The position numbers and the translations under genes are program-made. The notes beneath the pieces are model-generated. The model had not been told where the DNA came from, ran no database searches, and was given only the letters and a program-made list of their open reading frames with translations. DNA of 64,000 bases from Gemmatimonadota bacterium (GTDB taxonomy: Bacteria; Gemmatimonadota; Gemmatimonadetes; Gemmatimonadales; GWC2-71-9). Location: contig JANMXA010000042.1 of assembly GCA_031394255.1 (NCBI GenBank), forward strand, positions 25,505 through 89,504, in the 5' to 3' direction. Positions 4,448 to 62,453 of the stretch are shown one piece after another (within the stretch, counting starts at the first letter, position 1; each line of letters opens with the position of its first letter).

Positions 4448-6553
4448 GTGAAGCGAATCTCAGGCATCCTGATCCGGGTGGTGGCAAGCGCGGTTGTCGC
4501 CGTGACGACAGTGGCGGCGCAACGACCCGGGTCCGGTCACGGCCGGCCCGAAGTAATCCGTACCGAGCATGGGGTTCCCCACATTTACGCCGACGACTTC
4601 TGGCAGGCCGGATACGGTCTCGCCTGGGTCGAGCTCGAGGACTATGGCGGTCGCGTCGCCCTGGCCTTGATTGACGGGCGCGGCGAACGCGGCCTCGTAT
4701 TCGGGCGGGACAGTATCGAGGCCGACTTCAGCGCCCGACCGATGAATACCCGGGCGCGGACCATGTGGCCTCGCCTGAGCCCGGCGACCCGCGACATGTA
4801 CGATGGATTTGCCGCCGCGGTCAACGATTACATCGCAAGCCACCGCAGCGAGTTCCCGACGACGATCCGGACCGGATTCGAAGGCTGGGACGTCCTCGCC
4901 AACGAGATCCCCACGGCCAACACCCGCGCCGCCCTCCGCCTTCTCCAACGGAGCCGACCGGCAACCGTTCCGAGCCGTTCCACGGATGAAGGCTCCAACG
5001 CCTGGGCGCTCGCGCCGAGTCGGACCAAATCCGGCCATGCGATTCTGCTCCGCAATCCCCATCTCGACTGGGACGCCGGCTACTACGAGGCCCACCTTGT
5101 CGTACCCGGCCAGCTCGATTTTTACGGCGATTTCCGCATCGGGGGGGCGTTTGCCGTTGTCGGCGGGTTCAATCGGGATTTGGGCTGGGCAACGACCAAC
5201 AATGCGGTCGATACCGACGAGCTCTACCAGATTCCCCTGGCAAAGGGGCGCAATGATCGGATCGTGCTCGACGGTCAGGCGGTACCGCTGACTCGAAGCC
5301 GCGTCACTGTCCCGTTCCGAACAAGATCCGGTATCGGGCGGGAGACCCGGGAGTTCTGGACCTCGCCGTACGGCCCCGTGATCGACCGGCGTCACGGCCA
5401 GGCCTTTGTGCTCAAAGCGGCGGGGGTCGGCGAATACCGCGGCGGCGAACAATTCCTCCGGATGATGCGGGCCCGCTCCTTTGCCGAGTGGGAGAGCGCC
5501 ATGCAGCTTCGGGCGCGCATCACATCGAACCTGACCTACGCCGATCGAGCCGGGAACATCTTCTACGTCTGGAACGGCGCTCTGCCGGCCCTCCCCCACC
5601 CTCCCGGGGGAGATTCGACCATCTTCCCGGTGCGATCCGCCAGCGAGATGTGGCAGCACCTGGTCCCCTGGGACTCTCTGCCCCACCTGATGAATCCTGC
5701 GGGCGGGTATCTCCACAACGAGAACGACTCCCCGCACTTTACCTCGCTTGAGGCGCCACTCGACCCCGCTCGACTTCCAGCCAATGTCGAGCCACCGAGC
5801 CTCCGGCTTCGAAGTCAGCATGCCCTGGATCTGGTTCGCCATCCCGAAGATCGATTCTCCCTTGAGGATGTCGTCCACCTCAAGCACAGCTACCGGATGC
5901 TGCTGGCTGAACGGATCCTGCCCGATCTGTTGACGGCGGCCGGCCATCAGATCCCGGCTCCGCCGGCCGACGCCATACAGGTGCTGCGAAATTGGGATCG
6001 GTCGACAGCGCCGAATTCGCGCGGCGGGGTACTGTTCGAGACCTGGTGGCGACTGTACGAGGCGAAGGTGAAGCAACCGTTCGGCACCGTGTGGTCGATC
6101 ACCTCCCCGACCGCCACGCCAGCCGGGCTGGCCGACCCGACCGAGGCGGCCGGCCTGATCCGGCTGGCGGCCGACTCGGTCCGCCATCGATTCGGGCGCA
6201 TTGACGTCTCGTGGGGCGACGCCCACCGGGTTCGGATTGGCGCGACGGACGTCCCGGTCGGCGGTTGCCGGGGTGACCTCGGCTGTTTTCGGGTCCTCTG
6301 GTACCGCGACGAGCCCGATGGCAAACTGGCCGCTGAGGGCGGCGACGGCTGGGTTCTGGCAGTCGAGTTCGGCGACGTCCCGCGGGCCTATTCGGTTCTG
6401 GTCTATGGTGAAAGCAACCGACCCGATTCCCCCTGGTTCGGGGATCAGGCCGTTCGGTTTGCCGCGGGAAATCTGAAGACCGTTCTGCTCGATCGACCAA
6501 CCATCGAAAAGTGGGCGATACGGCGCTACCGCGCTGGAAGGAACCGCCCATGA
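4448..6553 (+). CDS. Penicillin amidase / acyl-homoserine-lactone acylase family (Ntn hydrolase, peptidase S45)
   Basis: About 700 aa. The processing/nucleophile motif EGSNAWALAP is present. The N-terminus VKRISGILIRVVASAVVAV is a signal anchor. The start is ambiguous: GTG 4448 is preferred and TTG 4400 is the longest option. Confidence 0.8.
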   Translation: MKRISGILIRVVASAVVAVTTVAAQRPGSGHGRPEVIRTEHGVPHIYADDFWQAGYGLAWVELEDYGGRVALALIDGRGERGLVFGRDSIEADFSARPMNTRARTMWPRLSPATRDMYDGFAAAVNDYIASHRSEFPTTIRTGFEGWDVLANEIPTANTRAALRLLQRSRPATVPSRSTDEGSNAWALAPSRTKSGHAILLRNPHLDWDAGYYEAHLVVPGQLDFYGDFRIGGAFAVVGGFNRDLGWATTNNAVDTDELYQIPLAKGRNDRIVLDGQAVPLTRSRVTVPFRTRSGIGRETREFWTSPYGPVIDRRHGQAFVLKAAGVGEYRGGEQFLRMMRARSFAEWESAMQLRARITSNLTYADRAGNIFYVWNGALPALPHPPGGDSTIFPVRSASEMWQHLVPWDSLPHLMNPAGGYLHNENDSPHFTSLEAPLDPARLPANVEPPSLRLRSQHALDLVRHPEDRFSLEDVVHLKHSYRMLLAERILPDLLTAAGHQIPAPPADAIQVLRNWDRSTAPNSRGGVLFETWWRLYEAKVKQPFGTVWSITSPTATPAGLADPTEAAGLIRLAADSVRHRFGRIDVSWGDAHRVRIGATDVPVGGCRGDLGCFRVLWYRDEPDGKLAAEGGDGWVLAVEFGDVPRAYSVLVYGESNRPDSPWFGDQAVRFAAGNLKTVLLDRPTIEKWAIRRYRAGRNRP

Positions 6554-14403: not shown

Positions 14404-16191
14404 ATGACCAACACCCAGACGAAGCGGGTTCAGTACGATGCGGTCGTGGTCGGCTCCGGCGCCGGCGGCGGCATGGCGGCTTTCCAGCTTGCCGTGAATG
14501 GGCTCAAGGTTTTGCTGCTCGAGGCCGGCCGAAACTACGACCCGCTCCGCGAAACGCCGATGTTCCAGTTGCCCAAGGACGCCCCTCTCCGGTCCGAGGG
14601 CACGGTCGACAAGCCCTTCGGGTTCTACGACGCCACGGTCGATGGCGGCTGGCGGGTGCCCGGCGAGCCGTACACCGTGGCTGAGGGATCGGATTTCATG
14701 TGGTGGCGGGCCCGGATGCTCGGCGGGCGGACCAACCACTGGGGTCGCATCTCACCGCGCATGGGGCCTTACGATTTCAAGCCGCGCTCCCGCGACGGCT
14801 TGGGGCTTGATTGGCCGCTCACCTACGACGAACTCGAATCCTATTACGACAAGACCGAAGCCCTGATCGGGGTCTACGCCCACGATCAGAGCCTCGAGAA
14901 TACCCCGGTCTCCCGGCATGGGACCCAGCTCCCGCCGCCCAAGCCCCGGGCCTTCGAGCTGCTGACAAAGAAATACGCCGCACCGCTCGGCATTCCGGTC
15001 ATCCCTGCCCCGATTGCCGTGCTGACCCGGATGCAGGACGCGGATCACTGGCCCGCGAAACTGTTTCCCGGCAATCCGCTCGCCCAGCGCGTCGTCCGGC
15101 AGTCCATGCGGTCGCGGCTCGCCTGCATCTATGCCACCGGATGCGGCCGCGGCTGTTCGCTCCGGGCGAACTTCCAGTCCACCACCGTACTACTCCCCCC
15201 CGCCCTCGCGACCGGCAACCTCACCATCGTCCCCAACGCGATGGTCCGGGAGGTCACGGTTGACCAGCGCGGCCGTGCCACCGGCGTGAGCTACGTCGAC
15301 AAGGCATCCCGGACGGACCGGCATGTCAGGGCCCGCATTGTGGTGCTCGCCGCCAGCGCCTGCGAAACCGCGCGCATCATGCTCAACTCGAAATCGGCGC
15401 TGTTCCCCAACGGCATCGCCAACACCAACGGGCTGGTCGGCAAGGGGCTGATGGACACGGTGGGTGCCGGTATTGGCGGCCAGATTCCGATGCTCGAGAA
15501 CCTGCCGCCCCATAACAACGAAGGCACCACGCGGCTCCACATGTACGTGCCGTGGTGGCAATACCAGGAACAACTCGCGGGCAAGCTCGACTTCGCCCGA
15601 GGGTACCATGTCGAGTTCGGCGGCGGCCGCGACATGCCCGATGCCGGAATCTTCTGGGGACTCGAGGACTACACCAACGGCGCCTACGGCAAACGGTTCA
15701 AGGAGGAAGCGCGCCGGTACTACGGATCGTTCGTCTACTTCGACGGCCGCGGGGAGATGATTCCGAATGACGACTCCTATTGCGATCTCGATCCCACGGT
15801 GGTCGACCAGTGGGGTATTCCCGTGCTCCGGTTCCACTGGAAGTGGAGCAAGCACGAAACCAACCAGGCATCCCACATGGTCAAGACCTTTGCCCAGCTG
15901 ATCGAATCCATGGGCGGCAAGGTCGTGGGCAAGCTCGAGACGGACGGCACCAAGGTGATCGCCAAAGGCGGCCAGATCATCCACGAAGTGGGAACCGTCC
16001 GGATGGGAGACGACGCCAGAACGTCGGTACTGAACGCCCACTGCCAGGCATGGGACGTCAAGAACCTGTTCGTCAGCGACGGAGCCCCGTTCGTCTCGAA
16101 CGCCGACAAGAATCCCACCATCTCGATCCTGGCACTGGCGTGGCGGACCACCGACCACATTCTCGCGGAAATGAAACGGGGGAACATCTGA
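14404..16191 (+). CDS. GMC family FAD-dependent oxidoreductase (gluconate 2-dehydrogenase flavoprotein-like)
   Basis: N-terminal Rossmann motif DAVVVGSGAGGG and a C-terminal GMC motif HEVGTVRMG. Confidence 0.85.
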   Translation: MTNTQTKRVQYDAVVVGSGAGGGMAAFQLAVNGLKVLLLEAGRNYDPLRETPMFQLPKDAPLRSEGTVDKPFGFYDATVDGGWRVPGEPYTVAEGSDFMWWRARMLGGRTNHWGRISPRMGPYDFKPRSRDGLGLDWPLTYDELESYYDKTEALIGVYAHDQSLENTPVSRHGTQLPPPKPRAFELLTKKYAAPLGIPVIPAPIAVLTRMQDADHWPAKLFPGNPLAQRVVRQSMRSRLACIYATGCGRGCSLRANFQSTTVLLPPALATGNLTIVPNAMVREVTVDQRGRATGVSYVDKASRTDRHVRARIVVLAASACETARIMLNSKSALFPNGIANTNGLVGKGLMDTVGAGIGGQIPMLENLPPHNNEGTTRLHMYVPWWQYQEQLAGKLDFARGYHVEFGGGRDMPDAGIFWGLEDYTNGAYGKRFKEEARRYYGSFVYFDGRGEMIPNDDSYCDLDPTVVDQWGIPVLRFHWKWSKHETNQASHMVKTFAQLIESMGGKVVGKLETDGTKVIAKGGQIIHEVGTVRMGDDARTSVLNAHCQAWDVKNLFVSDGAPFVSNADKNPTISILALAWRTTDHILAEMKRGNI

Positions 16192-25098: not shown

Positions 25099-26967
25099 AT
25101 GGTGGCACCCATGTCCGCACCAACTCAAACTCCGGCGGCCCGCGTTCCTCGCGATGCCGTCGTCATCCGGTTCGCCGGTGACTCCGGCGACGGTATGCAG
25201 ATTACCGGCTCCGAATTCATGGCCGAGACGGCGCTCGCTGGCAACGACCTCTCGACCTTCCCCGACTACCCGGCCGAGATCCGGGCACCGGCCGGCACGA
25301 CTTTCGGCGTTTCCGCCTTTCAGATTCATTTCGGCACCCGCGAGGTCATGACCGCGGGAGACGATCTCGACGCCTTGATTGCGATGAACCCGGCGGCCCT
25401 CAGGGTCAACCTCAAGGATCTGAAGCCTGGCGGCGTCCTGGTCTGCGATCTCGGCGCCTTCACTCCCCGGAACCTGACCAAGGCCGGCTACGCCGAAAAC
25501 CCGCTCGAGAACAACTCGCTGTCGGAGTACCGGGTTCTCAAGCTCGACGTCACCAAGCTGAACGCCGAGGCGGTGAAGGGCTTTGATCTGGGAGCCAAGG
25601 AAGCGGTTCGGTCCCGGAACATGTGGACCCTGGGGCTGATGCTGTGGATGTACGGCCGCGATCGGCACGCCACGGTGGCCTGGCTCATGAAAAAATTCGC
25701 CAAGAAGCCGGAAATCGCCAAGGCGAATGTGGCCGCGATGAACGCCGGCCATGCCTTTGGCGAAACCGCCGAGCTCGCCGCCCCATCCTATAGCGTCGCA
25801 CCCGCTTCGGTCGCGGCGGGAACCTACCGGACCATCACCGGCACCGAATCGCTCGTGTGGGGCCTGGTTGCCGGAGCCCAGGCCGCGGCTCTCCCCCGGG
25901 TGGTGATGGCGTCGTACCCGATCACACCGTCGTCCCCGGTACTCCACACGCTGGCGGGATTGAAACAGTTCGGGATCGTCACGTTCCAGGCCGAGGATGA
26001 GATTTCGGCCATGTGCGCGGCGATCGGCGCGGCTTATGGCGGAGCCCTGGCGATCACCTCGAGTTCGGGACCCGGGATCGCGCTCAAGACCGAAGCGATT
26101 GGGTTGGCCGTGATGACCGAACTCCCCGTGGTGATCATCAACAACCAGCGCGGCGGCCCGTCGACCGGCCTGCCCACCAAGACCGAGCAGTCCGATCTCT
26201 ACCAGGCGATCTATGGCCGTAACGGAGACACCCCGCTCCCGGTCCTGTCCACGGCCACTCCGTCTGATTGCTTTGAGGTGGGGATGGAAGCCGTGCGAAT
26301 CGCCACCAAGTACATGACCCCGGTCATGCTGCTGACCGACGGATACCTGGCCAATGCGTCGGAGCCATGGCTGATTCCCGACGCGACCAAGCTCCCCAGC
26401 TTCCCGGTCCGGTTCCGGACCGAGCCCGAAGGCTTCCAGCCCTATCTCCGGGACCCGAAGACATTGGGCCGCGTCTGGGCCGTCCCCGGTACCCCTGGAT
26501 TGGAGCATCGGATCGGCGGAATCGAGAAGGACTACGACACCGGCCACATCTCGTACGACGATGCGAACCACCAGAGGATGACCGATACCCGGGCCGCCAA
26601 GATTGACGGGATCGCCAACGACATTCCGCTCCAGACCGTGGCCGTCGGTGAGGACCACGGCACGATGGCTGTCGTTGGCTGGGGATCGACCTATGGGCCG
26701 ATCCACCAGGCGGTTCGCGCCCTCAGGGCCGAGGGACATCAGGTATCCCAGATACATATCCGGTACCTCAAGCCGTTCCCCCGAAACCTCGGCGACCTGC
26801 TGCGCCGTTTCGACCGGGTCTTGGTGCCCGAGATGAACAATGGCCAATTGGTATCGGTACTCCGGGCCGAGTATCTGGTCCCGGCAGAGAAGCTCTCGAA
26901 AGTGACCGGCAAGCCGTTCAAGATCGCTGAACTCGTCGCGGCGATCCGCGGCCGATTGGAGAAGTGA
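25099..26967 (+). CDS. korA: 2-oxoglutarate/2-oxoacid:ferredoxin oxidoreductase, alpha subunit
   Basis: 622 aa with the motifs FAGDSGDGMQ, SYPITPSS and NNQRGGPSTGLPTKTEQSDL, all typical of KorA. Confidence 0.9.
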   Translation: MVAPMSAPTQTPAARVPRDAVVIRFAGDSGDGMQITGSEFMAETALAGNDLSTFPDYPAEIRAPAGTTFGVSAFQIHFGTREVMTAGDDLDALIAMNPAALRVNLKDLKPGGVLVCDLGAFTPRNLTKAGYAENPLENNSLSEYRVLKLDVTKLNAEAVKGFDLGAKEAVRSRNMWTLGLMLWMYGRDRHATVAWLMKKFAKKPEIAKANVAAMNAGHAFGETAELAAPSYSVAPASVAAGTYRTITGTESLVWGLVAGAQAAALPRVVMASYPITPSSPVLHTLAGLKQFGIVTFQAEDEISAMCAAIGAAYGGALAITSSSGPGIALKTEAIGLAVMTELPVVIINNQRGGPSTGLPTKTEQSDLYQAIYGRNGDTPLPVLSTATPSDCFEVGMEAVRIATKYMTPVMLLTDGYLANASEPWLIPDATKLPSFPVRFRTEPEGFQPYLRDPKTLGRVWAVPGTPGLEHRIGGIEKDYDTGHISYDDANHQRMTDTRAAKIDGIANDIPLQTVAVGEDHGTMAVVGWGSTYGPIHQAVRALRAEGHQVSQIHIRYLKPFPRNLGDLLRRFDRVLVPEMNNGQLVSVLRAEYLVPAEKLSKVTGKPFKIAELVAAIRGRLEK

Positions 26968-26968
26968 A

Positions 26969-28003
26969 ATGACCGTCCTCACCCCGCCTCCCGCCGGGAA
27001 GAAAATCACCGCCGCGGACTTCGAATCGGATCAGGAAGTTCGTTGGTGCCCCGGCTGCGGCGACTATGCGATCCTCAAAGCCGTGCAACGCACCCTGGCC
27101 GAGGTCGGGGCCCGGAAAGAGAACACGGTCTTCGTATCCGGGATCGGGTGCTCATCGCGGTTCCCGTATTACGTCAGCACGTACGGATTTCACACGATCC
27201 ACGGGCGGGCGCCCGCGGTGGCAACCGGGCTCAAGCTCGCCCAGCCCGACCTCGACATCTGGCTCGTGACCGGCGACGGAGACGGCCTGTCCATCGGGGG
27301 CAACCATCTCCTCCATGTGCTGCGCCGCAACGTCAACATGCAGTTGATGCTGTTCAACAACGAAATCTACGGCCTGACCAAAGGACAGTATTCGCCGACC
27401 TCACGTGTGGGAACCCGCTCTCCGTCCACACCGCTCGGGTCGGTCGACATGCCGGTGTCCCCCACGCTGTTTGCCCTGGGCGCCGGCGCCCGGTTCGTGG
27501 CCCGGTCGGTGGATACCCAGCAGCCCCACCTGGTCGGCGTCCTCAAGCGGGCCCACGCCCACCAGGGCACCAGCTTCGTGGAGATCTTTCAGAACTGCGT
27601 GGTGTATAACGACGGCGTGTTCGACGAATTCACGGACAGGAGCGTAGCGCCCGACCGGCAACTTTTGGTCGAGCACGGGAAGCCACTCGTCTTCGGGAAG
27701 GAAAAGAATCAAGGCTTGCGGCTCAAGCCGAACGCCTTCGAACTGGAGGTCGTCACGATTGGGGAGAATGGCGTCTCCATCGCCGACATCTTGGTCCACG
27801 ACGAGCGGAATCGGGCCCTGGCCTCGCTCCTCGGCTCGCTCCACCCGCCGGACTTTCCCCAGGCCCTAGGCGTTCTCTACTGCGATCCGGCGCCGACCTA
27901 CGAGGACGCCGTGTTCGGGCAGATGAAGGCCGCCGCCAACGTCGGGCCGAAGGATCTCAACAGCCTGATGCGAACCGGCCGGACCTGGACCGTGGGCGGA
28001 TAG
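26969..28003 (+). CDS. korB: 2-oxoglutarate/2-oxoacid:ferredoxin oxidoreductase, beta subunit (TPP-binding)
   Basis: Motifs WCPGCGDY, GIGCSSRFPYY and GDGDGLSIGGNH. It starts 1 nt after the korA stop. Confidence 0.9.
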   Translation: MTVLTPPPAGKKITAADFESDQEVRWCPGCGDYAILKAVQRTLAEVGARKENTVFVSGIGCSSRFPYYVSTYGFHTIHGRAPAVATGLKLAQPDLDIWLVTGDGDGLSIGGNHLLHVLRRNVNMQLMLFNNEIYGLTKGQYSPTSRVGTRSPSTPLGSVDMPVSPTLFALGAGARFVARSVDTQQPHLVGVLKRAHAHQGTSFVEIFQNCVVYNDGVFDEFTDRSVAPDRQLLVEHGKPLVFGKEKNQGLRLKPNAFELEVVTIGENGVSIADILVHDERNRALASLLGSLHPPDFPQALGVLYCDPAPTYEDAVFGQMKAAANVGPKDLNSLMRTGRTWTVGG

Positions 28004-51273: not shown

Positions 51274-51748
51274 GCTTGGTCACACTCCCCTTTGCTCGTT
51301 CCGCGCCCTCATCGACCGCCTTCATCAAGGCATGCCAGGCGAGGGTCGCACATTTCACCCGGATTGGAAACGCGGCCACGCCCGCAAACGCACTGAGGCA
51401 GCCGAGGCTCTTCCGTGCCGCACTCTTGTCGCCTTCGTCGGCAGGGGCCCGGCCGGTCACCATCCGGCGGAACCGCTCGAACAGATGCTGCACTTCCTCA
51501 ACCGGCTTCCCCTTGATGATCGTGGTCATCATGGACGCAGAGGCCTTGGAAATAGCGCACCCTTGCCCCAGGAAAGCCACATCCGTCACCACACCATCGG
51601 CAACGGACACCCATACGTCGAACGTATCACCGCAGAGAGGATTCCGCCCCTCAGCGTGGCCGGAGGGCGACCCGATCTGCCGAAAATTCCGAGGCGCCCT
51701 GTTATGGTCCAGGATCAACGTCTGGTACAGGTCGTCCAGATCGCTCAT
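51263..51748 (-). CDS. sufU: SUF system NifU-family Fe-S cluster scaffold/sulfurtransferase SufU
   Basis: The track ORF 51263-51901 was trimmed to ATG 51748 (MSDLDDLYQTLILDHNRAPRN). Motifs NPLCGD, GQGCAIS and the C-terminal Cys (KCATL). The start overlaps the sufS stop (ATGA). Confidence 0.9.
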   Translation of the reverse strand: MSDLDDLYQTLILDHNRAPRNFRQIGSPSGHAEGRNPLCGDTFDVWVSVADGVVTDVAFLGQGCAISKASASMMTTIIKGKPVEEVQHLFERFRRMVTGRAPADEGDKSAARKSLGCLSAFAGVAAFPIRVKCATLAWHALMKAVDEGAERAKGSVTKHAL

Positions 51749-52998
51749 TGGCCAAACACTTTCTGGGCCCGCCTCACGCCGGCTACCAGGGCCGCCACGT
51801 CCTCCTCGATCGAGTACGGCCCGAACGACGCACGGACGGTAGCCGGGACCCCCAGCTTCGCCATCAGCGGCTGAGCGCAGTGATGGCCCGCGCGGACGCA
51901 AACACCACCGGCGTCCAGTGCGGTCCCAACGTCGTGAGGATGAACCCCGTCGACCGCAAACGTCACCACGCCAACCCGTTCCTGGGGGGCACCGAACACC
52001 GTAACGCCGCTCATCGCCGCCAACTCGCTCCGAGCCCGCTCGACCAGCCCAGCCTCAAAGCGCCCCAGAGCCTCCCAGTCCCACGCCCCGAGATACTCGA
52101 GCACCGCACCCAGCCCATACACTTCCCCGATCGGCGGCGTCCCTGCCTCAAACCGTGCTGGCGGGGGGGCGTACGTCGAGCGCTCAATAGACACCGAGCC
52201 GATCATGCCGCCCCCACCCTGCCACGGCGGCATTGCTTCGAGCAGGGCACGCCGCCCGTACAACAACCCGAGTCCGGTCGGCCCGAACAACTTGTGGACG
52301 GACACTGTGTAGAAATCACACCCCAGCGCGACAACGTCTACCGGCAAATGCGGCGCTCCCTGGGCACCGTCGACGACACAGACCGCGCCAACCTCATGGG
52401 CGAGGTCGGCAATTCGACGAACTGGGTTGACCGTACCCAGAACATTCGAGACATGGCATACTGCGACAACCCTCGTTTGGCCCGACCGGTTCCGGGCCAG
52501 CCAATCCAGGTCCAGATCACCCGAGCTGTCAATCGGAATGGCGCGGATCGTCGCGTTCGTCGCCTGGGCGACAAGTTGCCACGGCACCAGGTTCGAGTGG
52601 TGCTCCAGCTCTGAGACAAGGATCTCCCCGCCGCCCTTCCCCAGCCTCTGGCGACCGATGGTCTGGGCCACCAGGTTGAGGCTCGCGGTGGTACCGCCGG
52701 TAAAGACCGTCTCCCCGGGGGTCGCACCGAGAAACCTGGCCGCGGCCGCCCGCACATCCTCGAACCGTTCCGTCGCCTCCTGGCTCGGTGTGTGTACCCC
52801 ACGAGCAACATTCGCGCTGACATGGCGGTAATACTCGGACACCGCATCAACCATCAGCTGGGGCTTGAGCGCCGTGGCCGCGCTATCGAGATAGACGAGG
52901 GGGTTGCCGCGCAGGGCCCGCGCCAACATCGGGAACTCCGCCCGGACCCGCCCGCCGTCCCATACCGCGGTCCCGGCGGCTGGCTCGCCAACCCGCAT
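51745..52998 (-). CDS. sufS: Cysteine desulfurase SufS (class II)
   Basis: Motifs YLDSAATALKP, SELEHHSN, SVHKLFGPTG (PLP Lys) and RAGHHCAQP (catalytic Cys). Start chosen at MRVGE (52998); the longest ORF to 53034 would overlap sufD. Confidence 0.9.
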   Translation of the reverse strand: MRVGEPAAGTAVWDGGRVRAEFPMLARALRGNPLVYLDSAATALKPQLMVDAVSEYYRHVSANVARGVHTPSQEATERFEDVRAAAARFLGATPGETVFTGGTTASLNLVAQTIGRQRLGKGGGEILVSELEHHSNLVPWQLVAQATNATIRAIPIDSSGDLDLDWLARNRSGQTRVVAVCHVSNVLGTVNPVRRIADLAHEVGAVCVVDGAQGAPHLPVDVVALGCDFYTVSVHKLFGPTGLGLLYGRRALLEAMPPWQGGGGMIGSVSIERSTYAPPPARFEAGTPPIGEVYGLGAVLEYLGAWDWEALGRFEAGLVERARSELAAMSGVTVFGAPQERVGVVTFAVDGVHPHDVGTALDAGGVCVRAGHHCAQPLMAKLGVPATVRASFGPYSIEEDVAALVAGVRRAQKVFGQ

Positions 52999-53008
52999 CG
53001 CGTGCCTC

Positions 53009-54340
53009 CTACCGGTCCGAAGCGAGACGCCCATGAATCAACTGATCGAGCACGGTCCGCACCGGCTCGGCCGAAATCTCGTTGAGCACCTCGGCGGCGA
53101 ACGCATATGTCAGCAACTCACCGGCAACAACGTCGGGAATCCCCCGACTCGTGAGGTAGAACCGGGCCAGCGGATCCAGGTTGCCGACCGTGGCTCCATG
53201 GGTGCATTTCACATCGTCCGCAAAAATCTCCAGTTGCGGCTTGGTATCGATCCTGGCCGTATCGGACAACAACAACGCCCGATTCGTCTGTTTCGCATCG
53301 GTCTTCTGGGCAATTGGCTGGACGATGATCTTGCCGTTGAACACCCCATGAGCCCGGTCGGTGAGAATGCCCTTGTAGACTTCCCAGCTCCGGCAGTCCG
53401 GCTGGTCGTGAAAGATCGTCGTGTGATTGTCCACCAGTTGATCGCCGCGCCCGAAATACAGGCCGTACAAGAGTGCTTCCGCCCCGGACCCGCCCAGGCG
53501 CGAACGGAGGTCGTGGCGCGCGATCGCCCCACCGATCGCAAACGCGAATGACCGGAAATGACTGTCGGCGTCCTGGCGAACTTCCGTTACCCCCGTATGG
53601 AACGACGCCTCCGACTCCCGCTGAATCCGGGTGTGCTCGACCCAGGCACCGCGAGCGAGTCGGACGTCGCATACCGGGTTCGTCCAGTAGCGACCCGAGC
53701 CAGGCAGCCCGACATAGCTTTCGATCAGTTGGGCTCGGGCCCGGGCGCCGACCACCGCCAGCAACCGCGGGTGGGTTGCTGCGCCGTCAGCGCCGGGAGT
53801 GGTGACATGCAGAACATGGAGAGGCTCATCCATGATGGCTTCGTCGGCCAGACGAAGCACGGTCCCGTCAATCCCCAGGGCGGCATTCAGTGAGGCAAAC
53901 GATGTCACCGTGCGACCCGAGGCCTCGGCCAGATCAGACGCCACATGCTCGTCGCCGGATCGTACCGCCGATGCGAGGTTCGCGATCGCCAGGCCAGGCA
54001 CCGACGGCAGTCGGGACAACTCTGGCCGGAACCGACCATCGACCAGCACGAGGCGTGGCCAGTCCGTGCGACCGAACAAGAATGGCTCCAGATCGGCCAA
54101 GCCGACGGGGGCCGCACTGGCGGCAGGCCGGAACGCCGCCCGAATCAGGGGGGCGATGGGCGTAAAGCGCCATTCCTCGTCCTTCGGTCCCGGAAACCCC
54201 GACACCCTGAACTGTTCAATCGCATCAGCCTGCAGGGATCGGAACCAACCCGGCGCCGCCGCAACCCCCTGGGCGGAGGCGACCTCGTATTGGTGGAGGT
54301 AGTGCTCGATCACACCCGCTCCGGAGTACCAGTCAGCCAC
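53009..54340 (-). CDS. sufD: Fe-S cluster assembly protein SufD
   Basis: 443 aa. The C-terminal beta-helix region has NGKIIV...[42 protein letters not shown]. An alternative GTG start at 54313 would overlap the sufC stop by 4 nt. Confidence 0.9.
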
Positions 54341-55074
54341 TCATAGCCCCGGGCTTCGAGCTCGAGTGCCAACTCCTTGCCGCCCGTCTTGATTAACTGG
54401 CCGTCCGCCAGCACATGGACGATGTCGGGAATGATATGGTCCAAAAGCCGCTGATAATGGGTCACGACCACATAGGCGTTGTCGGGTCGTTTGAGGGCGT
54501 TGACTCCGTTCGCCACGATCCGAAGGGCATCGATATCCAGGCCGGAATCGGTTTCGTCCAGTAGCGCCAGCTTCGGCTCGAGGACGGCCATCTGAAGAAT
54601 CTCGTTCCGCTTCTTCTCGCCGCCCGAAAAACCCGCGTTGACCGCCCGCCGCATGATTTCGGGGCCCCACTCCACGAGCTTGAGCTTTTCCTCGAGAAGA
54701 TCGATGAAGTCGATCGGATCCATCTCCTCGAGCCCACGGGCCTTTCGCACCTCGTTGTAAGCCGCCCGCAAGAAATAGGCGTTTGTGAGGCCCGGGATTT
54801 CGACCGGATACTGGAATGCGAGGAATATGCCGGCCTGGGCCCGCTCCTCCGGAGGCATTTCGCCGATGTCGATCCCATCAAACCGGATCGTTCCCCCTGT
54901 GATCGCGTACGCCGGATGCCCGGAGATGACCTGGACCAGCGTACTCTTGCCGGATCCGTTCGGCCCCATGATCGCATGCACTTCACCCCGGTTCACGACG
55001 AGATCGATGCCCTTGAGAATGGGCTTGTCCCCGACGTTGGCCCGGAGGTCGCTGATTTCAAGTAGTGGTGCCAC
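54310..55074 (-). CDS. sufC: Fe-S cluster assembly ATPase SufC
   Basis: Walker [10 protein letters not shown], signature [13 protein letters not shown] and Walker [16 protein letters not shown]. Confidence 0.95.
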
Positions 55075-55083
55075 GTTGACTCC

Positions 55084-56538
55084 CTATCCGACGCTTCCCT
55101 CGAGGCTGATCCCGAGCAATTTCTGAGCTTCCACGGCGAATTCCATCGGGAGCTCGCGGAAGACCTCTTTGCAAAATCCGTTGACGATCATCGAAATGGC
55201 GTTTTCCGTGTTCAAGCCGCGTTGCTTCAGATAGAAGATCTGGTCCTCACCGATTTTCGACGTCGACGCCTCGTGTTCGACAGCCGCGGTTCGGTTCTGA
55301 ACATCGATATACGGAAACGTGTGCGCCCCGCACCGATTTCCGATAAGCATCGAATCGCACTGGGTGTAGTTCCTCGCGCCGTCGGCCCGCGGCATCACCT
55401 TTACCTGACCGCGATAGCTGTTCTGGCCGCGCCCGGCCGAAATTCCCTTCGACACAACCGTGCTCTTCGTATTGCGGCCGATGTGAATCATCTTCGTTCC
55501 GGTGTCGGCCTGCTGGCGGGCATTCGTGACCGCCACCGAGTAGAACTCGCCGATGGAGTTGTCACCCTGCAGAATGACACTGGGGTATTTCCAGGTGATG
55601 GCGGAGCCGGTTTCGACCTGGGTCCAGGAAATCTTGGCGCCGGCACCGGCACATTTCCCGCGCTTGGTGACGAAATTGTAAATGCCACCCTTGCCGTCCT
55701 CGTCCCCGGCATACCAATTCTGGACGGTGGAGTACTTGATCGTCGCGCCGGCCATGGCCACCAGCTCCACCACCGCCGCATGCAGTTGATTCTCGTCCCG
55801 CTTGGGCGCCGTACAACCCTCCAGATAGCTGACGTACGACCCCTCATCGGCGACGATCAGAGTGCGTTCAAACTGGCCGGTATTCTGGGCGTTGATCCGG
55901 AAGTACGTCGACAGATCCATCGGGCATCGGACGCCCTTCGGGACGTAGACGAATGATCCGTCGCTGAACACGGCCGAATTCAGCGCCGCGAAGAAGTTGT
56001 CGCTCGCTGGGACCACGGAACCAAGGTAGCGCTCGATGAGATCCGGATACTCACGGACCGCTTCGGAAAATGAACAAAATATGATCCCCATCTCGCCCAG
56101 CTGCCGGCGATAGGTCGTACCCACCGAGACGCTGTCGAATACTGCGTCGACCGCGACCCCCGACAGGATCTTCTGTTCGGTCAGGGGGATGCCAAGCTTG
56201 TCGTACGCCTCCCTGATCTTGGGGTCGACCTCATCCAGGCTGCCAAGCGGCGCCTTGGTTCTGGGCGCGGCGTAATACACCATCCGTTGATAGTCGATCG
56301 GGGGGTACGTCACGTTCGGCCAATGGGGTTCTGTCATCTTGAGCCAACCCCGGTAGGCCCTGAGGCGCCATTCCAGCAGAAACGGCGGCTCGCCTTTCTT
56401 CGCCGATATAAGGCGAACCACGTCTTCGTCGAGACCAGCCGGAATCTGGTCAGTCTCGATGTCGGTTACAAAGCCCCATTTGTAGTCGCGATTGACTAAC
56501 GACTCGACAGACTCGCTCACGCGCCCTCCCTCGGACAA
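55084..56538 (-). CDS. sufB: Fe-S cluster assembly protein SufB
   Basis: Contains [13 protein letters not shown], ...[15 protein letters not shown]...YRG.V... and [20 protein letters not shown] start at 56538; an alternative GTG at 56520 is preceded by GGAGGG. Confidence 0.95.
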
Positions 56539-56556
56539 TCAGCTCTTCAACATTGA

Positions 56557-56585
56557 ATCCTAAGTGAAAAAGTCGGGATTGTCAA
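56557..56585 (-). promoter_or_regulatory. Candidate sigma70-type promoter of the suf operon
   Basis: On the minus strand, TTGACA (56585-56580), a 17-nt spacer and TAGGAT (56562-56557). It lies about 20-40 nt upstream of the sufB start candidates. Pattern match only. Confidence 0.4.
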
Positions 56586-56728
56586 ACAACCTGGGGTCGC
56601 AGACTCCAGCCGTCCAACGCCCGCTCCGTTCGGCCAAACCGATGATCGATAGTCGTAGTTTTAACAACTCCTTTAATAATTTCGAACGAGACTTGCGCAT
56701 TGCCGCGTCAATCCCTGTATTGGGAGCC

Positions 56729-57292
56729 ATGACGATCCACCGCATTCGCCTGCTTGGCGACCCAATTCTCAGGACCAAGTGCGCCACGATCTCCCATCCG
56801 GGCTCAGCTGCGGTTCGCATGATCGTCGACGACCTTCGCGAAACACTACGTGACTGGCAGTCCCGTTTTGGGACTGGGCGAGCCATCGCTGCCCCCCAAA
56901 TCGGAGCACCGGTCCGGATGGTCTACGTCGAAATGGATCGCCCCTGGCCACTGATCAATCCCGAAATCGTGGATATAGGCACGGAGGATTTCGTGGTGTG
57001 GGACGATTGTTTCTCGTTCCCCAACATGCTGGTCCGGGTCCAACGGGCCTATCGGGTTCGACTCAGGTACCAGGACATGCGGGGCGAAACCCACGAAATC
57101 GAACTCGAAGGGGATCGTGCGGAGCTGGTCCAGCACGAGGTGGATCACCTTGACGGCGTCTTGGCCGTTGACCGTGCGCACGGAACCGATCCGTTCTGCC
57201 TCCGCGAAGAGTGGAATCGATGGTACACGTCCACCGATCGGTGCAGCCCGCCCGAACCCCGAACCGAACACCTCCACAGCAGCATCCTCTGA
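56729..57292 (+). CDS. def: Peptide deformylase
   Basis: The track ORF 56564-57292 was trimmed to ATG 56729 (MTIHRIRLLGDPILR). Motif 1 is GRAIAAPQIG. Motif 2 is divergent (DDCFSFP) but retains the Cys. Motif 3 is QHEVDHLDG. Confidence 0.85.
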   Translation: MTIHRIRLLGDPILRTKCATISHPGSAAVRMIVDDLRETLRDWQSRFGTGRAIAAPQIGAPVRMVYVEMDRPWPLINPEIVDIGTEDFVVWDDCFSFPNMLVRVQRAYRVRLRYQDMRGETHEIELEGDRAELVQHEVDHLDGVLAVDRAHGTDPFCLREEWNRWYTSTDRCSPPEPRTEHLHSSIL

Positions 57293-57347
57293 GCCCCGAC
57301 CCAGCCGGCTGTGCAGCATTGACCTGACCCCAACCAGCGAGCCTTCA

Positions 57348-58025
57348 ATGGGCGAAGTGATCCGCTTCCCTGCCAACGGACACTCCACGTCCGGCTACCT
57401 GAGCCTTCCCTCGACCGGGCCAGGGCCGGCGCTGCTCGTGATCCAGGAGTGGTGGGGGCTGGTCGGCCACATCACGGACGTCGCCGACCGGTTTGCGGCC
57501 GCCGGGTTCGTGGCGCTGGCCCCCGATTTCTACGACGGTCAGTCAACCCAGAGCCCTGATAGGGCGGCGAAGTTGTTCATGGCATTGAATATCGAACGCG
57601 CCGCCGCCGACCTTCGGGGAGCCGCCGACTACCTCCTCGGCCGACCCGACGTCACTTCGAACCGGGTCGGAGCTCTCGGGTTCTGCATGGGTGGTCAGTT
57701 GGCTTTGTATGCCGGCACCGAATTTCCCGACCGATTCGGAGCGGTTGTTGATTTCTACGGCATTCACCCCAAGGTACCGGTCGATCGCCAGCGCCTCCGG
57801 GTCCCTGTGCAAGGTCATTTTGGACGACGCGACACCTCCGTACCCGTTGCGACCGTAGAGGACCTGGCCATGGGCGTCCGCAGCGGAGGCGGCACATTCG
57901 AGACCCACTTCTACGACGCCGGCCACGCCTTCTTCAACGACACGAGACCCGGCGTCTTTGACCGAGCCGCAGCCGACCTGGCGTGGACCCGATCGGTCAG
58001 TTTTCTGACCCGGCATTTGGGGTGA
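57348..58025 (+). CDS. Dienelactone hydrolase family protein
   Basis: The track ORF 57117-58025 was trimmed to ATG 57348 (MGEVIRFPANG). Contains LLVIQEWWGL, the nucleophile motif GFCMGG and HAFFND near the C-terminus. Confidence 0.85.
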   Translation: MGEVIRFPANGHSTSGYLSLPSTGPGPALLVIQEWWGLVGHITDVADRFAAAGFVALAPDFYDGQSTQSPDRAAKLFMALNIERAAADLRGAADYLLGRPDVTSNRVGALGFCMGGQLALYAGTEFPDRFGAVVDFYGIHPKVPVDRQRLRVPVQGHFGRRDTSVPVATVEDLAMGVRSGGGTFETHFYDAGHAFFNDTRPGVFDRAAADLAWTRSVSFLTRHLG

Positions 58026-58109
58026 GCGGCCACCTTCCAGACCCCCTTGCGCCGGCCCCACTCACCCCCTAACCTGAGCCTCGGTCAGGCCAACAATTCT
58101 GGAGCCATC

Positions 58110-58373
58110 ATGACGTACATTATCACCGAAGCCTGCATCGGCGTTAAGGATCGGGCCTGTGTCGATGTCTGTCCCGTAGACTGCATCTACGAGGGCGACG
58201 ACCAGCTCTATATCCATCCCGATTAGAGCATCGATTGAGGTGCGTGTGAACCGGAATGACCGGTCAGCGCGATCTTCCCCGAGGAAGAGGTCCCGGCCAA
58301 TCTGACCGCTTTTATTTCGAAGAACAAGGACGTTTTTGGCGGCGCCAATCCTCCTGGTCGTCCCAAACGCTAG
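58110..58373 (+). pseudogene. 7Fe-type (FdxA-like) ferredoxin reading frame interrupted by three in-frame stop codons
   Basis: GGAG lies 6 nt upstream of ATG 58110. The frame reads [84 protein letters not shown]. The stops are TAG 58224-58226, TGA 58236-58238 and TGA 58257-58259. The canonical family motif is HPDECxDCGACEPxCP. It is absent from the ORF track because every fragment is shorter than 60 aa. Confidence 0.8.
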
Positions 58374-58392
58374 ACGCCCACGATCCCATTGC

Positions 58393-58422
58393 AGAAGGGC
58401 GACCCCGTGGGGTCGCCCTTCT
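58393..58422 (+). terminator. Rho-independent-type hairpin downstream of the ferredoxin frame
   Basis: A 14-bp perfect stem (AGAAGGGCGACCCC / GGGGTCGCCCTTCT) with a 2-nt loop, followed by TGCTTGT. It begins 20 nt after the frame's final TAG. Confidence 0.65.
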
Positions 58423-58503
58423 TGCTTGTAACCCCGGCTCCGTGGGATGACTTGACCCGCCCCGGGAACGGATTGGGACCGCGACACCCCTCTCAATCCG
58501 CGG

Positions 58504-59730
58504 TCACCGAAGGCTCTGCAGGAATTTGAGGATTGCCCGTGTCGTCGGCACCGGCTGCTCGACACAGGGCAAATGACCCGCCCCGGGGATCTCAACCAAC
58601 CGGCCCTCCGGCAACGCCGCCGCCATCGCTTCTGAAATCGCCGGGGGGGTGATCACATCCTCCTGCCCTACCACAACGAGCGTGGGAATGCCCAACAAGG
58701 CCCCAAGTAACGGGGTACTATCGGGCCGGTCCCGCATGGCTGTCAACGCCCCGACAATACCCGGAACCGGCGCACCCAGGATCATCGTCCGAATCGCCTC
58801 GATGATTGCCGGCGGAACAACTGGAGTAAAGAACCTCGGCAGCATTGCCTCAGCCGCGGCCATGGCGCCCTGCTCGCGCACTTTGGCAACCAGGCCATCA
58901 CGCGCCTTCCGCCCTTCGACACTGTCCGCCTCCGCCCGGGTATCCATCAAGATCAGACCGCGGACGCGCGAGCGATAGCGACGAAGGAACTCGAACCCGA
59001 TATAGCCACCCATCGAAAGGCCGCAGAGCACGACGCGGTCTTCGCCCAACGCGTCGAGCAGGCCGGCGAGATCATCGGCATACATGGCGATCGAATAACC
59101 CAGATCAGGCGCATCCGACTGGCCCAACCCTCGAAGATCGTACGCGATCCGGCGGTACCCCGTCAACGTGTCGAGCTGATGCCGCCAGACATGGCGATCA
59201 AGCGGGAATCCATGAATGAAGACAATCGCCGGCCCTGAACCGCGGGTCTCAATCGCCAGACTGACCCCGTTTACCGTCACCCGATCACTCGGCTCCGATG
59301 ATCGGCCGGCGCGAAAAAACCGTCCAAGGTCATCGGGAACCCCTTGCGGATGACCCTGCGCGTCGACACACACGAAGAGGAACTCTGCCGTGGCCACGGC
59401 GACGGCATCGGACGCCCGATGGGCGACTTGACGGAGAGTGAAACTGGTCCGGCCGAAGTGGGCGAGGGTCTGCTGGAACCGCAGGGCTTCGCCGGCGCGC
59501 ACCGGGGCATGGAAGTCGAGCACACTCCGGCGGATCGTCGGCCAAAGCCCCAGGCGTGAAAAGACGTCGACCCCCGGGCCGCGGCTCAACTGGTCCCAGC
59601 GGGCCCGCTCGAACAGCCTCAGGAATGCGGCGTGGCTGGCCACCCCAAGCGGATCACAGTCATCCGGAAAGACCGTCAGTTCAACGTCCGCCTCGTGCAT
59701 CGTACGATTTGCCATTCGCTTGGGGCCCAT
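58504..59730 (-). CDS. Fusion protein: 4HBT/YbgC-type acyl-CoA thioesterase (N-terminal) plus alpha/beta hydrolase (C-terminal)
   Basis: The N-terminal roughly 135 aa have a hotdog-fold pattern (VFPDDCDPLGVASHAAFLRLFERAR...). The C-terminal part has IVFIHGFPLD, the nucleophile elbow CGLSMGG and GAGHLP. Confidence 0.75.
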   Translation of the reverse strand: MGPKRMANRTMHEADVELTVFPDDCDPLGVASHAAFLRLFERARWDQLSRGPGVDVFSRLGLWPTIRRSVLDFHAPVRAGEALRFQQTLAHFGRTSFTLRQVAHRASDAVAVATAEFLFVCVDAQGHPQGVPDDLGRFFRAGRSSEPSDRVTVNGVSLAIETRGSGPAIVFIHGFPLDRHVWRHQLDTLTGYRRIAYDLRGLGQSDAPDLGYSIAMYADDLAGLLDALGEDRVVLCGLSMGGYIGFEFLRRYRSRVRGLILMDTRAEADSVEGRKARDGLVAKVREQGAMAAAEAMLPRFFTPVVPPAIIEAIRTMILGAPVPGIVGALTAMRDRPDSTPLLGALLGIPTLVVVGQEDVITPPAISEAMAAALPEGRLVEIPGAGHLPCVEQPVPTTRAILKFLQSLR

Positions 59731-59833
59731 TCAAACTACGCCAACAGGGTTCCCCATCGCTACCTTTCGCTCCGGTGCAGGTTCCCAGACTCTTCAACGC
59801 GGCCCCAGTGAATTGACCACCAGCCCTCCATTG

Positions 59834-60955
59834 ATGATCGACACCCCGGCCGCCCTCGAGTCATTGATCGACGGATGGATGGGGGAACCGGTGGTTGGTA
59901 TCGACACCGAAGCTGCCAGCTTTCACCGCTACCGCGACCGCGTGTACCTCGTTCAGCTCTCCACGCCGGCTGCCACCGTAATCGTGGATCCGTTGGGGAC
60001 GGGCGGCATCGAGGCATTCGGCCGCTGGTTCGAGGCCGACAGTACTGAATTCATTTTTCATGACGCCGACTACGACTTGCGTCTCATGCACCGGGAGGCC
60101 GGGCTCCGCGTTCGCCGACTCTTCGACACCCGGATCGCAGCGCAGTTTCTCAATCTCCCTGGCATTGGACTCGGGGCCATCCTCGAGCAGCGGTTCGGCG
60201 TTGCGACCGACAAGCGGTTCCAGCGAGCGGACTGGTCCGCCCGACCGCTGAGCCGGGAAATGATCGCGTATGCGGCAACTGACACCCGGTTCCTCCCCAC
60301 GCTCCGGGGAGCCTTTCTCGCCGAACTCGAGGGGCTGCGCCGTCTCGACTGGGTCCTTGAGGAGTGCAAGCTACAAACCGGGGTCGAGTGGGCCCCGACG
60401 GATCCACCGGAGCTCAGCTTCTTCCGCATCAAGGGCGCTCGCGACCTTGATCGCCGCAGTCTGGCAGTTCTCCGAGAGGTTTTCGTATGGCGGGAGCGGA
60501 CGGCCGAGCGTCTTGATCGGGCCTCATTCCGCATTCTTGGAAACGAAACTCTGCTGCTGTTGGCAGACAGGAAGCCCCGCAACACCAGCGACCTGGGCGG
60601 GCTCCGTGGGGTAGGTCCCGACAATGCCGCACGCTGGGGGACCGAGGTGGTCGCCGCCGTGAACCGGGGCCTCGAGATTCCCGATGACCAGTTGCCTGCC
60701 TTCGAACGTACGCCCCGCTTTCGGCCGGACCCCGCGTTCGAGGTTCGTCTCGACCGACTGAAGCAGTGGCGGACCGGCCTCTCGGCTCGCATTGGGCTCC
60801 CCCCCGGGATCCTGGCTCCCAACGGAACGCTGGAGGGCATTGCCCGGTCGGTCCCGACTACGCCGACTGCCCTACTGGGTGTAGTCGGCGTTCGCCGTTG
60901 GCAGGTAGCCGAATTTGGGAACGAAATCCTGACCGAGGTTGGCCGCCCGGCCTAG
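59834..60955 (+). CDS. rnd: Ribonuclease D (DEDDy 3'-5' exonuclease with HRDC domain)
   Basis: The track ORF 59438-60955 was trimmed to ATG 59834 (MIDTPAALESLI). Exo motifs VGIDTEA, FHDADYDL and YAATDTRFL, plus a C-terminal HRDC-like region. Confidence 0.85.
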   Translation: MIDTPAALESLIDGWMGEPVVGIDTEAASFHRYRDRVYLVQLSTPAATVIVDPLGTGGIEAFGRWFEADSTEFIFHDADYDLRLMHREAGLRVRRLFDTRIAAQFLNLPGIGLGAILEQRFGVATDKRFQRADWSARPLSREMIAYAATDTRFLPTLRGAFLAELEGLRRLDWVLEECKLQTGVEWAPTDPPELSFFRIKGARDLDRRSLAVLREVFVWRERTAERLDRASFRILGNETLLLLADRKPRNTSDLGGLRGVGPDNAARWGTEVVAAVNRGLEIPDDQLPAFERTPRFRPDPAFEVRLDRLKQWRTGLSARIGLPPGILAPNGTLEGIARSVPTTPTALLGVVGVRRWQVAEFGNEILTEVGRPA

Positions 60956-61248
60956 CCGAGAAAAGCGCGCACCCGGGGATCCATCCGCTCGGGGGTCCAG
61001 TACGGCTCCCAAATCAGCTCAACCTCCGCGCTGTTCACGCCCTCCATCTGCTGCGCCACCAATCGCGCATCTCCGAGAATCTCCGGGCCGGATGGACAGC
61101 CCGGGGATGTGAGGGTCATCTGAATGTGTACGTCTCCGGCGTCAGAAACCGTGATGTCGTACACCAACCCAATATCCACGATGTTGAGCCCCAACTCCGG
61201 ATCTTTGACCGCTCGGAGAGCTTTGCGCACGAGTTCTGGCGTCACCAT
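60952..61248 (-). CDS. DUF59 / MIP18-family metal-sulfur cluster assembly factor (SufT/PaaD-like)
   Basis: 98 aa. The sequence DPELGLNIVDIGLVYDI...MTLTSPGCP is the DUF59 hallmark. The 3' end overlaps the convergent rnd by 4 nt. Confidence 0.85.
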   Translation of the reverse strand: MVTPELVRKALRAVKDPELGLNIVDIGLVYDITVSDAGDVHIQMTLTSPGCPSGPEILGDARLVAQQMEGVNSAEVELIWEPYWTPERMDPRVRAFLG

Positions 61249-61319
61249 AGTTCAGTCTTCCTTGGCCGTAGACGGGCGGAACCTACTCCCCGGGCCCGGA
61301 CAGGTCAAAGACGAACACC

Positions 61320-62453
61320 TTACGGGTGAGGGGCCTTGGACGCCATGGCCGCGCCGACGGCGTCAGACAATCGGCTCCGGAGTTCGCGCATGGCTCGAAA
61401 GGTGGACCGAGCATTCGACCCCAGACTCCGATTCGTGAGCAGCACCACAAAGATGTCTCGTACCGGATCGAACCACAGAAAAGTGCCCGTCCAGCCCGTG
61501 TGACCATAGGTGGTCCCGGTGGCCGACCGACCAAAGGCGGACCGATCGAGATGCTGTGGATCCGGGATCTCCCATCCAAGCGCTCGCCTGCCCCCATGCG
61601 GATCGTGCTCGAGAAACCGGCGGACCGTCGCCGACCCCACCCATGGCCCGCGCGGGCCGGCACCAGACCGGAGCCAGGTCTGGGCGAATCGGGCAAGGTC
61701 GAGCCCGGTCGCGAACAGGCCGGCGTGTCCGGAGATCCCGCCCATCGCCCACGCATTGCGATCATTGACCTCGCCCGGCGCCGGGCGACCTCCGTGGGCA
61801 ATGCTCGGAGCAGCCATGGTTCGATCGGCAACCGCGAAGGTGGTCCGCCCCATCCCCAGTGGGGAAAACACGGCCTGCGCCGCAAAGCGGTCCAGGGTGG
61901 TGCCGCTCAGTGCCTCGACGATCAGACCCAGCAGAATCGCGTTGAGGTCACTGTACGTCGTCCGGGTACCCGGCGTAGCGATTAACGGCACCTCGAGCAG
62001 TTGATCGATCACACCTTGGCGCCCGATCGCGGTCCGATAGAAGGGCATGAAAGCTGGCAGACCGCTCGTATGGTCGAGCAACATCCGGAGAGTGACCGCA
62101 GACTTCCCTTCCCCGGCAAAGAGCGGCAGGTATCGCTCCACCGGTTGGTCGAGCTCGAGTCGCCCCTCATCCACCAATGTCATGATCGCGCTGGCCGTGG
62201 CCACCACTTTGGTGAGTGACGCGAGGTCCCACAGGGTCACCGCCGGATCAGGCGGGGCGGCGGCCTTGTCCCAAGAAACCCGTCCGAATCCCCTGGCGAA
62301 GAACACCGAGTCCCGGTTCCCCACCACGACAACCGCCCCGGGAAACAGACGCCGCCGGATCGCCCCGTCGACAATGGCCATCGCCGGCCTCCAGGCTGCG
62401 ATTGGCCCCGGCGATCCGCCGAGCGAGAGAAGGAGCAGGAGTGTCGGGGTCAC
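61320..62453 (-). CDS. Serine hydrolase (beta-lactamase class C family), secreted
   Basis: SxxK motif ASLTKVV, YSDLN (YxN) and a HTGWTG (KTG-like) motif. Confidence 0.8.
   Translation of the reverse strand: MTPTLLLLLSLGGSPGPIAAWRPAMAIVDGAIRRRLFPGAVVVVGNRDSVFFARGFGRVSWDKAAAPPDPAVTLWDLASLTKVVATASAIMTLVDEGRLELDQPVERYLPLFAGEGKSAVTLRMLLDHTSGLPAFMPFYRTAIGRQGVIDQLLEVPLIATPGTRTTYSDLNAILLGLIVEALSGTTLDRFAAQAVFSPLGMGRTTFAVADRTMAAPSIAHGGRPAPGEVNDRNAWAMGGISGHAGLFATGLDLARFAQTWLRSGAGPRGPWVGSATVRRFLEHDPHGGRRALGWEIPDPQHLDRSAFGRSATGTTYGHTGWTGTFLWFDPVRDIFVVLLTNRSLGSNARSTFRAMRELRSRLSDAVGAAMASKAPHP

Follow-up and report, generated by a model that had tools for sequence, protein, structure and literature searches.

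Conserved cysteine codons that read as in-frame TGA in metagenome-assembled sequence look exactly like the signature of a selenoprotein, which calls for caution. A case of this kind lies within the 64,000-nt stretch of DNA analysed here (the window; G+C content 64.5%), in a 7Fe ferredoxin gene. As it stands, this copy would pass in annotation for a pseudogene of a core electron carrier; it adjoins the suf genes for Fe-S assembly, and a 2-oxoacid:ferredoxin oxidoreductase is encoded in the window, too. The question raised by the locus is whether its three premature stops are decoded, have inactivated the gene, or do not belong to the organism at all.

The ferredoxin gene and its neighbourhood

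The 87-codon ferredoxin frame carrying TAG, AGC, TGA and TGA, described in an earlier note on this DNA, is correct base for base (Table 1), and it is closed by a TAG (58371-58373). In its translation, the first cysteine motif, CxxxxxxxCxxxCP, is present (C9, C17 and C21-P22). The second, CxxCxxCxxxCP, is not intact and reads (stop)S-I-D-(stop)-G-A-C-E-P-E-(stop)-P, where the expected block, invariant in every homologue examined, is HPDECIDCGACEPECPV. Translation from the ATG yields at most 38 aa, which would hold the first half-motif only. Following the AvFdI numbering, we take C9, C17 and C50 to be the ligands of the 3Fe cluster and C21, C40, C43 and C46 those of the 4Fe cluster. The earlier count of four single-nucleotide changes, three stops and three lost cysteine ligands stands, with the correction that the last ancestral codon is TGT and not TGC.

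Table 1. Features of the ferredoxin locus in window coordinates
Feature	Position	Strand	Details
Dienelactone-hydrolase gene, anchor for the same-strain search	57348..58025	+	exact 225-aa product on Logan contig L038
GGAG ribosome-binding site	58101..58104	+	5-nt spacer to ATG; conserved in L008 and L009
FdxA-type 7Fe ferredoxin gene	58110..58373	+	87 codons; syntenic orthologue, broken in the window copy only
TAG for Glu39 (GAG)	58224..58226	+	private G>T at 58224; GAG in L039, L036, L037, L008 and L009
AGC (Ser) for Cys40 (TGC)	58227..58229	+	private T>A at 58227; T in same-strain L034 and in L039
TGA for Cys43 (TGC)	58236..58238	+	private C>A at 58238; C in L034 and L039
TGA for Cys50 (TGT)	58257..58259	+	private T>A at 58259; T in L034, L039, L036 and L037
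GC-rich hairpin between the convergent ferredoxin and thioesterase/hydrolase genes	58391..58425	.	terminator-like, no U-run
4HBT thioesterase/alpha-beta hydrolase fusion gene, second anchor	58504..59700	-	exact 398-aa product on Logan contigs L034 and L035

The assignment to the FdxA-type family, made in the earlier note, is borne out once the four bases are reverted. The reverted protein scores 125.3 bits against the NCBIfam model FdxA_Actino (NF045480), just over the cut-off of 125 bits, a match that holds for the gene lineage and not for the product of the window copy. It also matches Pfam Fer4 families and aligns end to end with the PDB structures 1H98 (E = 1.6e-31), 2V2K (1.4e-30) and 1BC6 (5.9e-30), as well as with Azotobacter FdI. 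In a protein search, 87-aa homologues at 77-89% identity numbered in the thousands, with names pointing to metagenome bins of Gemmatimonadales and Gemmatimonadota.

The ribosome-binding site and the terminator had both been called intact. The GGAG is indeed in place, and a strong hairpin follows the gene (-29.4 kcal/mol, z = -6.0 on folding); however, it lacks the canonical U-run on both strands and was not picked up by a canonical terminator scan. Its arms, GGGCGACCC...GGGTCGCCC, are kept in the relatives L008, L009 and L036, among which small changes in the loop and the outer stem are seen. Lacking the U-run, the hairpin may be a bidirectional, non-canonical terminator.

The same gene order is found in the window and in the related contigs L002-L019, L036 and L037. 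It runs sufS-sufD-sufC-sufB (-), peptide deformylase (+), dienelactone hydrolase (+), ferredoxin (+), 4HBT-thioesterase/alpha-beta-hydrolase (-), RNase D (+) and DUF59/FeS_assembly_P (-). Given this conserved neighbourhood, the window copy is a syntenic orthologue and no stray fragment. In Gemmatimonadales metagenome bins, the 7Fe ferredoxin thus sits within a conserved neighbourhood for Fe-S biogenesis (window 51745-61248). Some of the neighbours deserve a remark of their own. The dienelactone-hydrolase gene is uncalled or just 89 aa long in several relatives with ferredoxin P0015 (L002, L005 and L006, around 5200-6004), and the window protein departs from four otherwise invariant columns (I82, A105, G117 and E160 of the 302-aa ORF); in this clade, the gene may be evolving fast or be in decay. 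The longest ORFs at 58504-59730 and 59438-60955 overstate their genes, as the hydrolase has 398 aa in all relatives, with its true start at 59700, and RNase D has 373-383 aa versus 505 aa for the longest ORF. Exact-product look-ups fail for the hydrolase and RNase D unless the true starts are used.

Alignment with the orthologous fdxA loci, which the earlier note had proposed as a check, gave a uniform picture: ECIDCGACEPEC is kept in 20/20 syntenic Gemmatimonadota relatives, and all of these genes are intact. Among GTDB representatives, L008 and L009 are the closest species-level relatives, L008 having a neighbour protein with 93% identity and DNA with about 84%; each has an intact gene, and the two were used to polarise the changes on the lineage of the window. 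At least eight synonymous changes were assigned to this lineage, with transitions accounting for 6/7 of the unambiguous ones, and outside the block there are 0 amino-acid replacements and 0 indels; the remaining codons are family-typical, as had been claimed. With only synonymous change outside the block, strict purifying selection acted on the gene essentially up to the present. Departures of the window from otherwise invariant columns number 6/665 in the neighbouring genes versus 4/12 in the block.

Independent assemblies of the same and near-identical strains

For the same-strain search, the exact products of the two flanking genes, trimmed to their true starts, were matched to Logan contigs. 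L038 (run SRR20217210) equals window positions 55604-58222 with 0 mismatches in 2619 nt, and L035 (run SRR20217174) equals positions 58349-60703 with 0 mismatches in 2355 nt. L034, from the same run as L038, equals positions 58227-61791 except at 58227 (T), 58238 (C) and 58259 (T). In the same strain, independently assembled, codons 40, 43 and 50 thus read TGC, TGC and TGT, within about 8.5 kb of same-strain flanks that are 100% identical to the window.

The whole ferredoxin gene is intact in L039 (ENA ERZ28573522), which stems from another sample and assembly and has flanks 99.5% identical to those of the window. Positions 625-888 of this contig match the window gene at 260/264 nt, and the differences are the four sites only, where L039 has GAG, TGC, TGC and TGT; with 58224, 58227, 58238 and 58259 set to G, T, C and T, the match becomes 264/264 nt. 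In L036 and L037 (92.7% DNA identity overall), the gene is again intact, with one further nucleotide different. For position 58224, the GAG reading rests on L039, L036, L037, L008 and L009, as no contig with 100% identical flanks spans this base. A fifth lineage-specific change in the block, the synonymous GCC>GCG at 58244, is common to the window and the same-strain contig L034, and is thus ordinary divergence.

The intact (reverted) protein is on record as an exact product. Conversely, the products of the mutated allele (the 38-aa fragment, a 59-aa form starting at TTG, a 177-aa minus-strand ORF and a 64-aa ORF in the +2 frame) are absent from an index of 153 billion genes. An exact DNA pattern that left the four sites as N had no match in genome_contigs or metagenome_contigs. 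By comparison with the intact contigs, the four changes are private to this sequence copy. The earlier note had taken GAG and TGC at these positions in the reads as the sign of an assembly or sequencing artefact. These codons were found in independent assemblies instead of reads, and with the second cysteine motif intact in both same-strain L034 and L039, the anomaly is, by that standard, not a stable biological feature.

Origin of the four bases

Chance was evaluated for four random substitutions in the ferredoxin gene, giving a probability of 0.008 for a span of at most 36 nt, of 1.6e-4 for at least three nonsense changes and of 1.5e-6 for both together. From this joint probability, and with no other difference across about 8.5 kb of same-strain sequence, it follows that independent mutations cannot explain the cluster, and the view that random decay did not produce it is thereby upheld. 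All four changes are transversions, against a transition-rich background, and each of them puts in an A on one of the two strands (a "to A" pattern, with a probability of about 0.05 by chance). The block is rich in nonsense targets, with 7/28 of the gene's total falling in these 12 codons, because of its Cys (TGY) and Glu (GAR) codons.

Several sources for such a cluster were considered and rejected. A donor for template switching or gene conversion finds no candidate within the window, whose best non-self matches are at chance level (18/28, 16/23 and 31/55), and no useful inverted or direct repeat occurs in 58150-58330. The arms of the RNA-level hairpin are complementary as DNA at just 11/18 positions (hand count), with mismatches left uncorrected in between the "improved" positions, so that a single template switch cannot account for the cluster. 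The change at 58259 turns TGTCCGGTCA into a perfect 10-bp palindrome, TGACCGGTCA (58257-58266); quasi-palindrome correction could account for this change alone among the four, and the fit may be a coincidence. An oxidative (8-oxoG) signature fails as well, as G:C>T:A accounts for just 2/4 changes once the last codon is corrected to TGT. Poor assembly in general is rejected, given the 0 other mismatches to the same-strain contigs and the clean neighbouring genes.

Programmed recoding, in which both TGAs would be selenocysteine and the TAG would be read through to give a ferredoxin with a Se-ligated Fe-S cluster, draws on the alignment of both TGAs (codons 43 and 50) with invariant cysteine ligands and on a hairpin after the first TGA (-23.7 kcal/mol, z = -2.4), with a 16-nt spacing to its loop. 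However, codon 39 is a TAG, which comes before both TGAs, and TAG also closes the gene itself, so that selenocysteine cannot rescue the frame; the replacement of Cys40 by Ser would, in addition, be unexplained. The same strain has TGC and TGT at these positions (L034), and no relative has a TGA. The intact allele folds as well (-23.9 versus -23.7 kcal/mol); the hairpin is thus a property of the coding sequence that did not arrive together with the stops, and an acquired SECIS is rejected. The bSECIS model has an apical loop of 3-9 nt, with G in the first two loop positions, at 16-37 nt from the UGA, and the loops AAUGA (after the first TGA) and CCGA (after the second, z = -0.75, not significant) are without the G that this rule requires (PMC13188914). 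Rfam gave no match for the region, SECIS included, and no tRNA genes were found in the 64-kb window; a degenerate double-TGA pattern, allowing any synonymous spelling, had 0 matches in 241 million metagenome records, and FdxA-type ferredoxins are absent from a 2026 list of prokaryotic selenoproteins. Recoding, already held unlikely in the earlier note, is thus regarded by us as extremely improbable. We give equally little credence to an old pseudogene under relaxed selection, or to a genetic code with TGA and TAG as sense codons, for either of which one gene with three in-frame stops would speak. Against these, the window copy shows no replacement, indel or loss of frame beyond the block, the same strain has an intact allele, and all but the four sites are identical to the intact L039 allele; the ribosome-binding site, length (87 codons) and hairpin are conserved, and such clustering is improbable under independent hits. 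The long coding-like ORFs of the window end in TGA (22, including 6551-6553 and 16189-16191, the examples of ordinary TGA stops given before) and TAG (15), and this stop-codon usage excludes a reassignment of either codon, just as the strict purifying selection up to the present excludes an old, decaying pseudogene.

Both leading explanations, a local error in this assembly and a very recent knock-out, are ordinary. In our judgement, the four bases that disable the gene (58224 T, 58227 A, 58238 A and 58259 A) are probably a non-biological error patch private to this assembly. We infer that such a patch would have arisen in sequencing, assembly, consensus building or later sequence handling; as a speculative hint, the "to A" pattern would fit the insertion of A opposite a damaged template, with duplicates amplified in a low-biomass library, or, alternatively, a conversion of N to A. 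The site is also one where other assemblies break: the Logan contigs of the same strain end at 58222 and resume at 58227, leaving a 4-nt gap (58223-58226) whose 34 missing 31-mers are consistent with synonymous variation at 58223 and 58226 (GAT GAG versus GAC GAA in co-occurring relatives; k=31), and the second-run contig L035 likewise breaks inside the gene, at 58349. The ultra-conserved ferredoxin gene is thus a tangle point in the assembly graphs of co-occurring relatives; however, assembly tangles join real alleles and do not, by themselves, invent stop codons. Also against an error patch, the window contig is at least 64 kb long and otherwise flawless versus the independent contigs, k-mer assemblers normally require at least two reads per k-mer, so that a four-error patch in a well-covered contig would itself be unusual, and the intact contigs could stem from a sister sub-population and not from the window's own cells. 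The competing account, less probable though by no means negligible, is a real and very recent knock-out allele, in which a natural glacier-stream-type Gemmatimonadota sub-population would have acquired four base changes inside 36 nt by a single multi-nucleotide event (e.g., error-prone translesion synthesis over a damaged stretch) and the allele would have dominated the sample of the window. In that case, these cells would be able to do without the ferredoxin, perhaps with another one encoded elsewhere in the genome as a backup. The length and otherwise error-free state of the contig argue for good read support, the transversions fit one unusual event, and the Cys and Glu codons of the block make nonsense changes easy to reach there. 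Nevertheless, with no replacement on the lineage and 77-89% identity over thousands of homologues, a null allele should be strongly selected against, and one stop would be enough for inactivation where three stops and ligand loss are found. Moreover, an intact gene is seen both in the same strain from a different run and in a near-identical strain from a second sample, the cluster has no local donor or inverted-repeat template to account for it, and the 64-kb window holds no second CxxCxxCxxxC ferredoxin. If the allele were real, it would be a modest observation, that of an otherwise invariant fdxA being dispensable in this sub-population, together with a naturally occurring translesion-type patch of four mutations, and no new decoding mechanism.

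Implications and comparison with known systems

In a Gemmatimonadales-like Gemmatimonadota bacterium, the locus itself is most likely an ordinary fdxA-type 7Fe ferredoxin gene, functional and in its syntenic place. As the gene is intact in independent same-strain assemblies, metabolic reconstructions of this genome should count the ferredoxin as present. The korAB genes (25099-28003), brought forward in the earlier note as a reason for the relevance of the ferredoxin, are a genuine 2-oxoacid:acceptor oxidoreductase alpha/beta pair, and they have no bearing on the anomaly. The general lesson is that a TGA at a cysteine codon of metagenome-assembled sequence calls for comparison with independent assemblies or with reads before a selenoprotein or the loss of a core gene is called.

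No 7Fe ferredoxin is known to be a selenoprotein. In the known case of HgcB, the selenocysteine is placed close to the C terminus and does not take the position of a cluster ligand (PMC13188914). With bacterial selenoprotein genes (fdhF-type, with an in-frame UGA and a bSECIS read by SelB), the window copy shares TGA at the cysteine positions of homologues and a stem-loop directly downstream of the first TGA. It differs from them in its upstream in-frame TAG, in a loop that does not follow the rule, in a hairpin that is not specific to the TGA allele, and in TGAs that are missing from the same strain and every relative. Unitary pseudogenes formed by nonsense mutation are similar in having premature stops in a recognisable gene with intact expression signals; in contrast, real pseudogenes carry scattered replacements and indels, usually shared by close relatives, whereas every defect of the window copy falls inside a 36-nt stretch, and not even the same strain shares any of them.

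A further likeness in pattern is to local consensus and assembly error patches of metagenome-assembled genomes and to clustered multi-nucleotide mutations, in which several substitutions fall within a few tens of bases, the spectrum is unlike the background, and the changes are private to one assembly and sited where the contigs of other assemblies break. Typical metagenome misassemblies, on the other hand, are chimeras of real alleles and would not create new stops. Finally, the reverted sequence has the CxxxxxxxCxxxCP and CxxCxxCxxxCP spacing of the 7Fe [3Fe-4S][4Fe-4S] ferredoxins of Thermus thermophilus (1H98), Mycobacterium smegmatis (FdxA, 2V2K) and Bacillus schlegelii (1BC6) and of AvFdI. 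The window copy departs from these by its stops at codons 39, 43 and 50 and its Ser at codon 40, and the Gemmatimonadota family as a whole is set apart from them by its compact 87-aa form.
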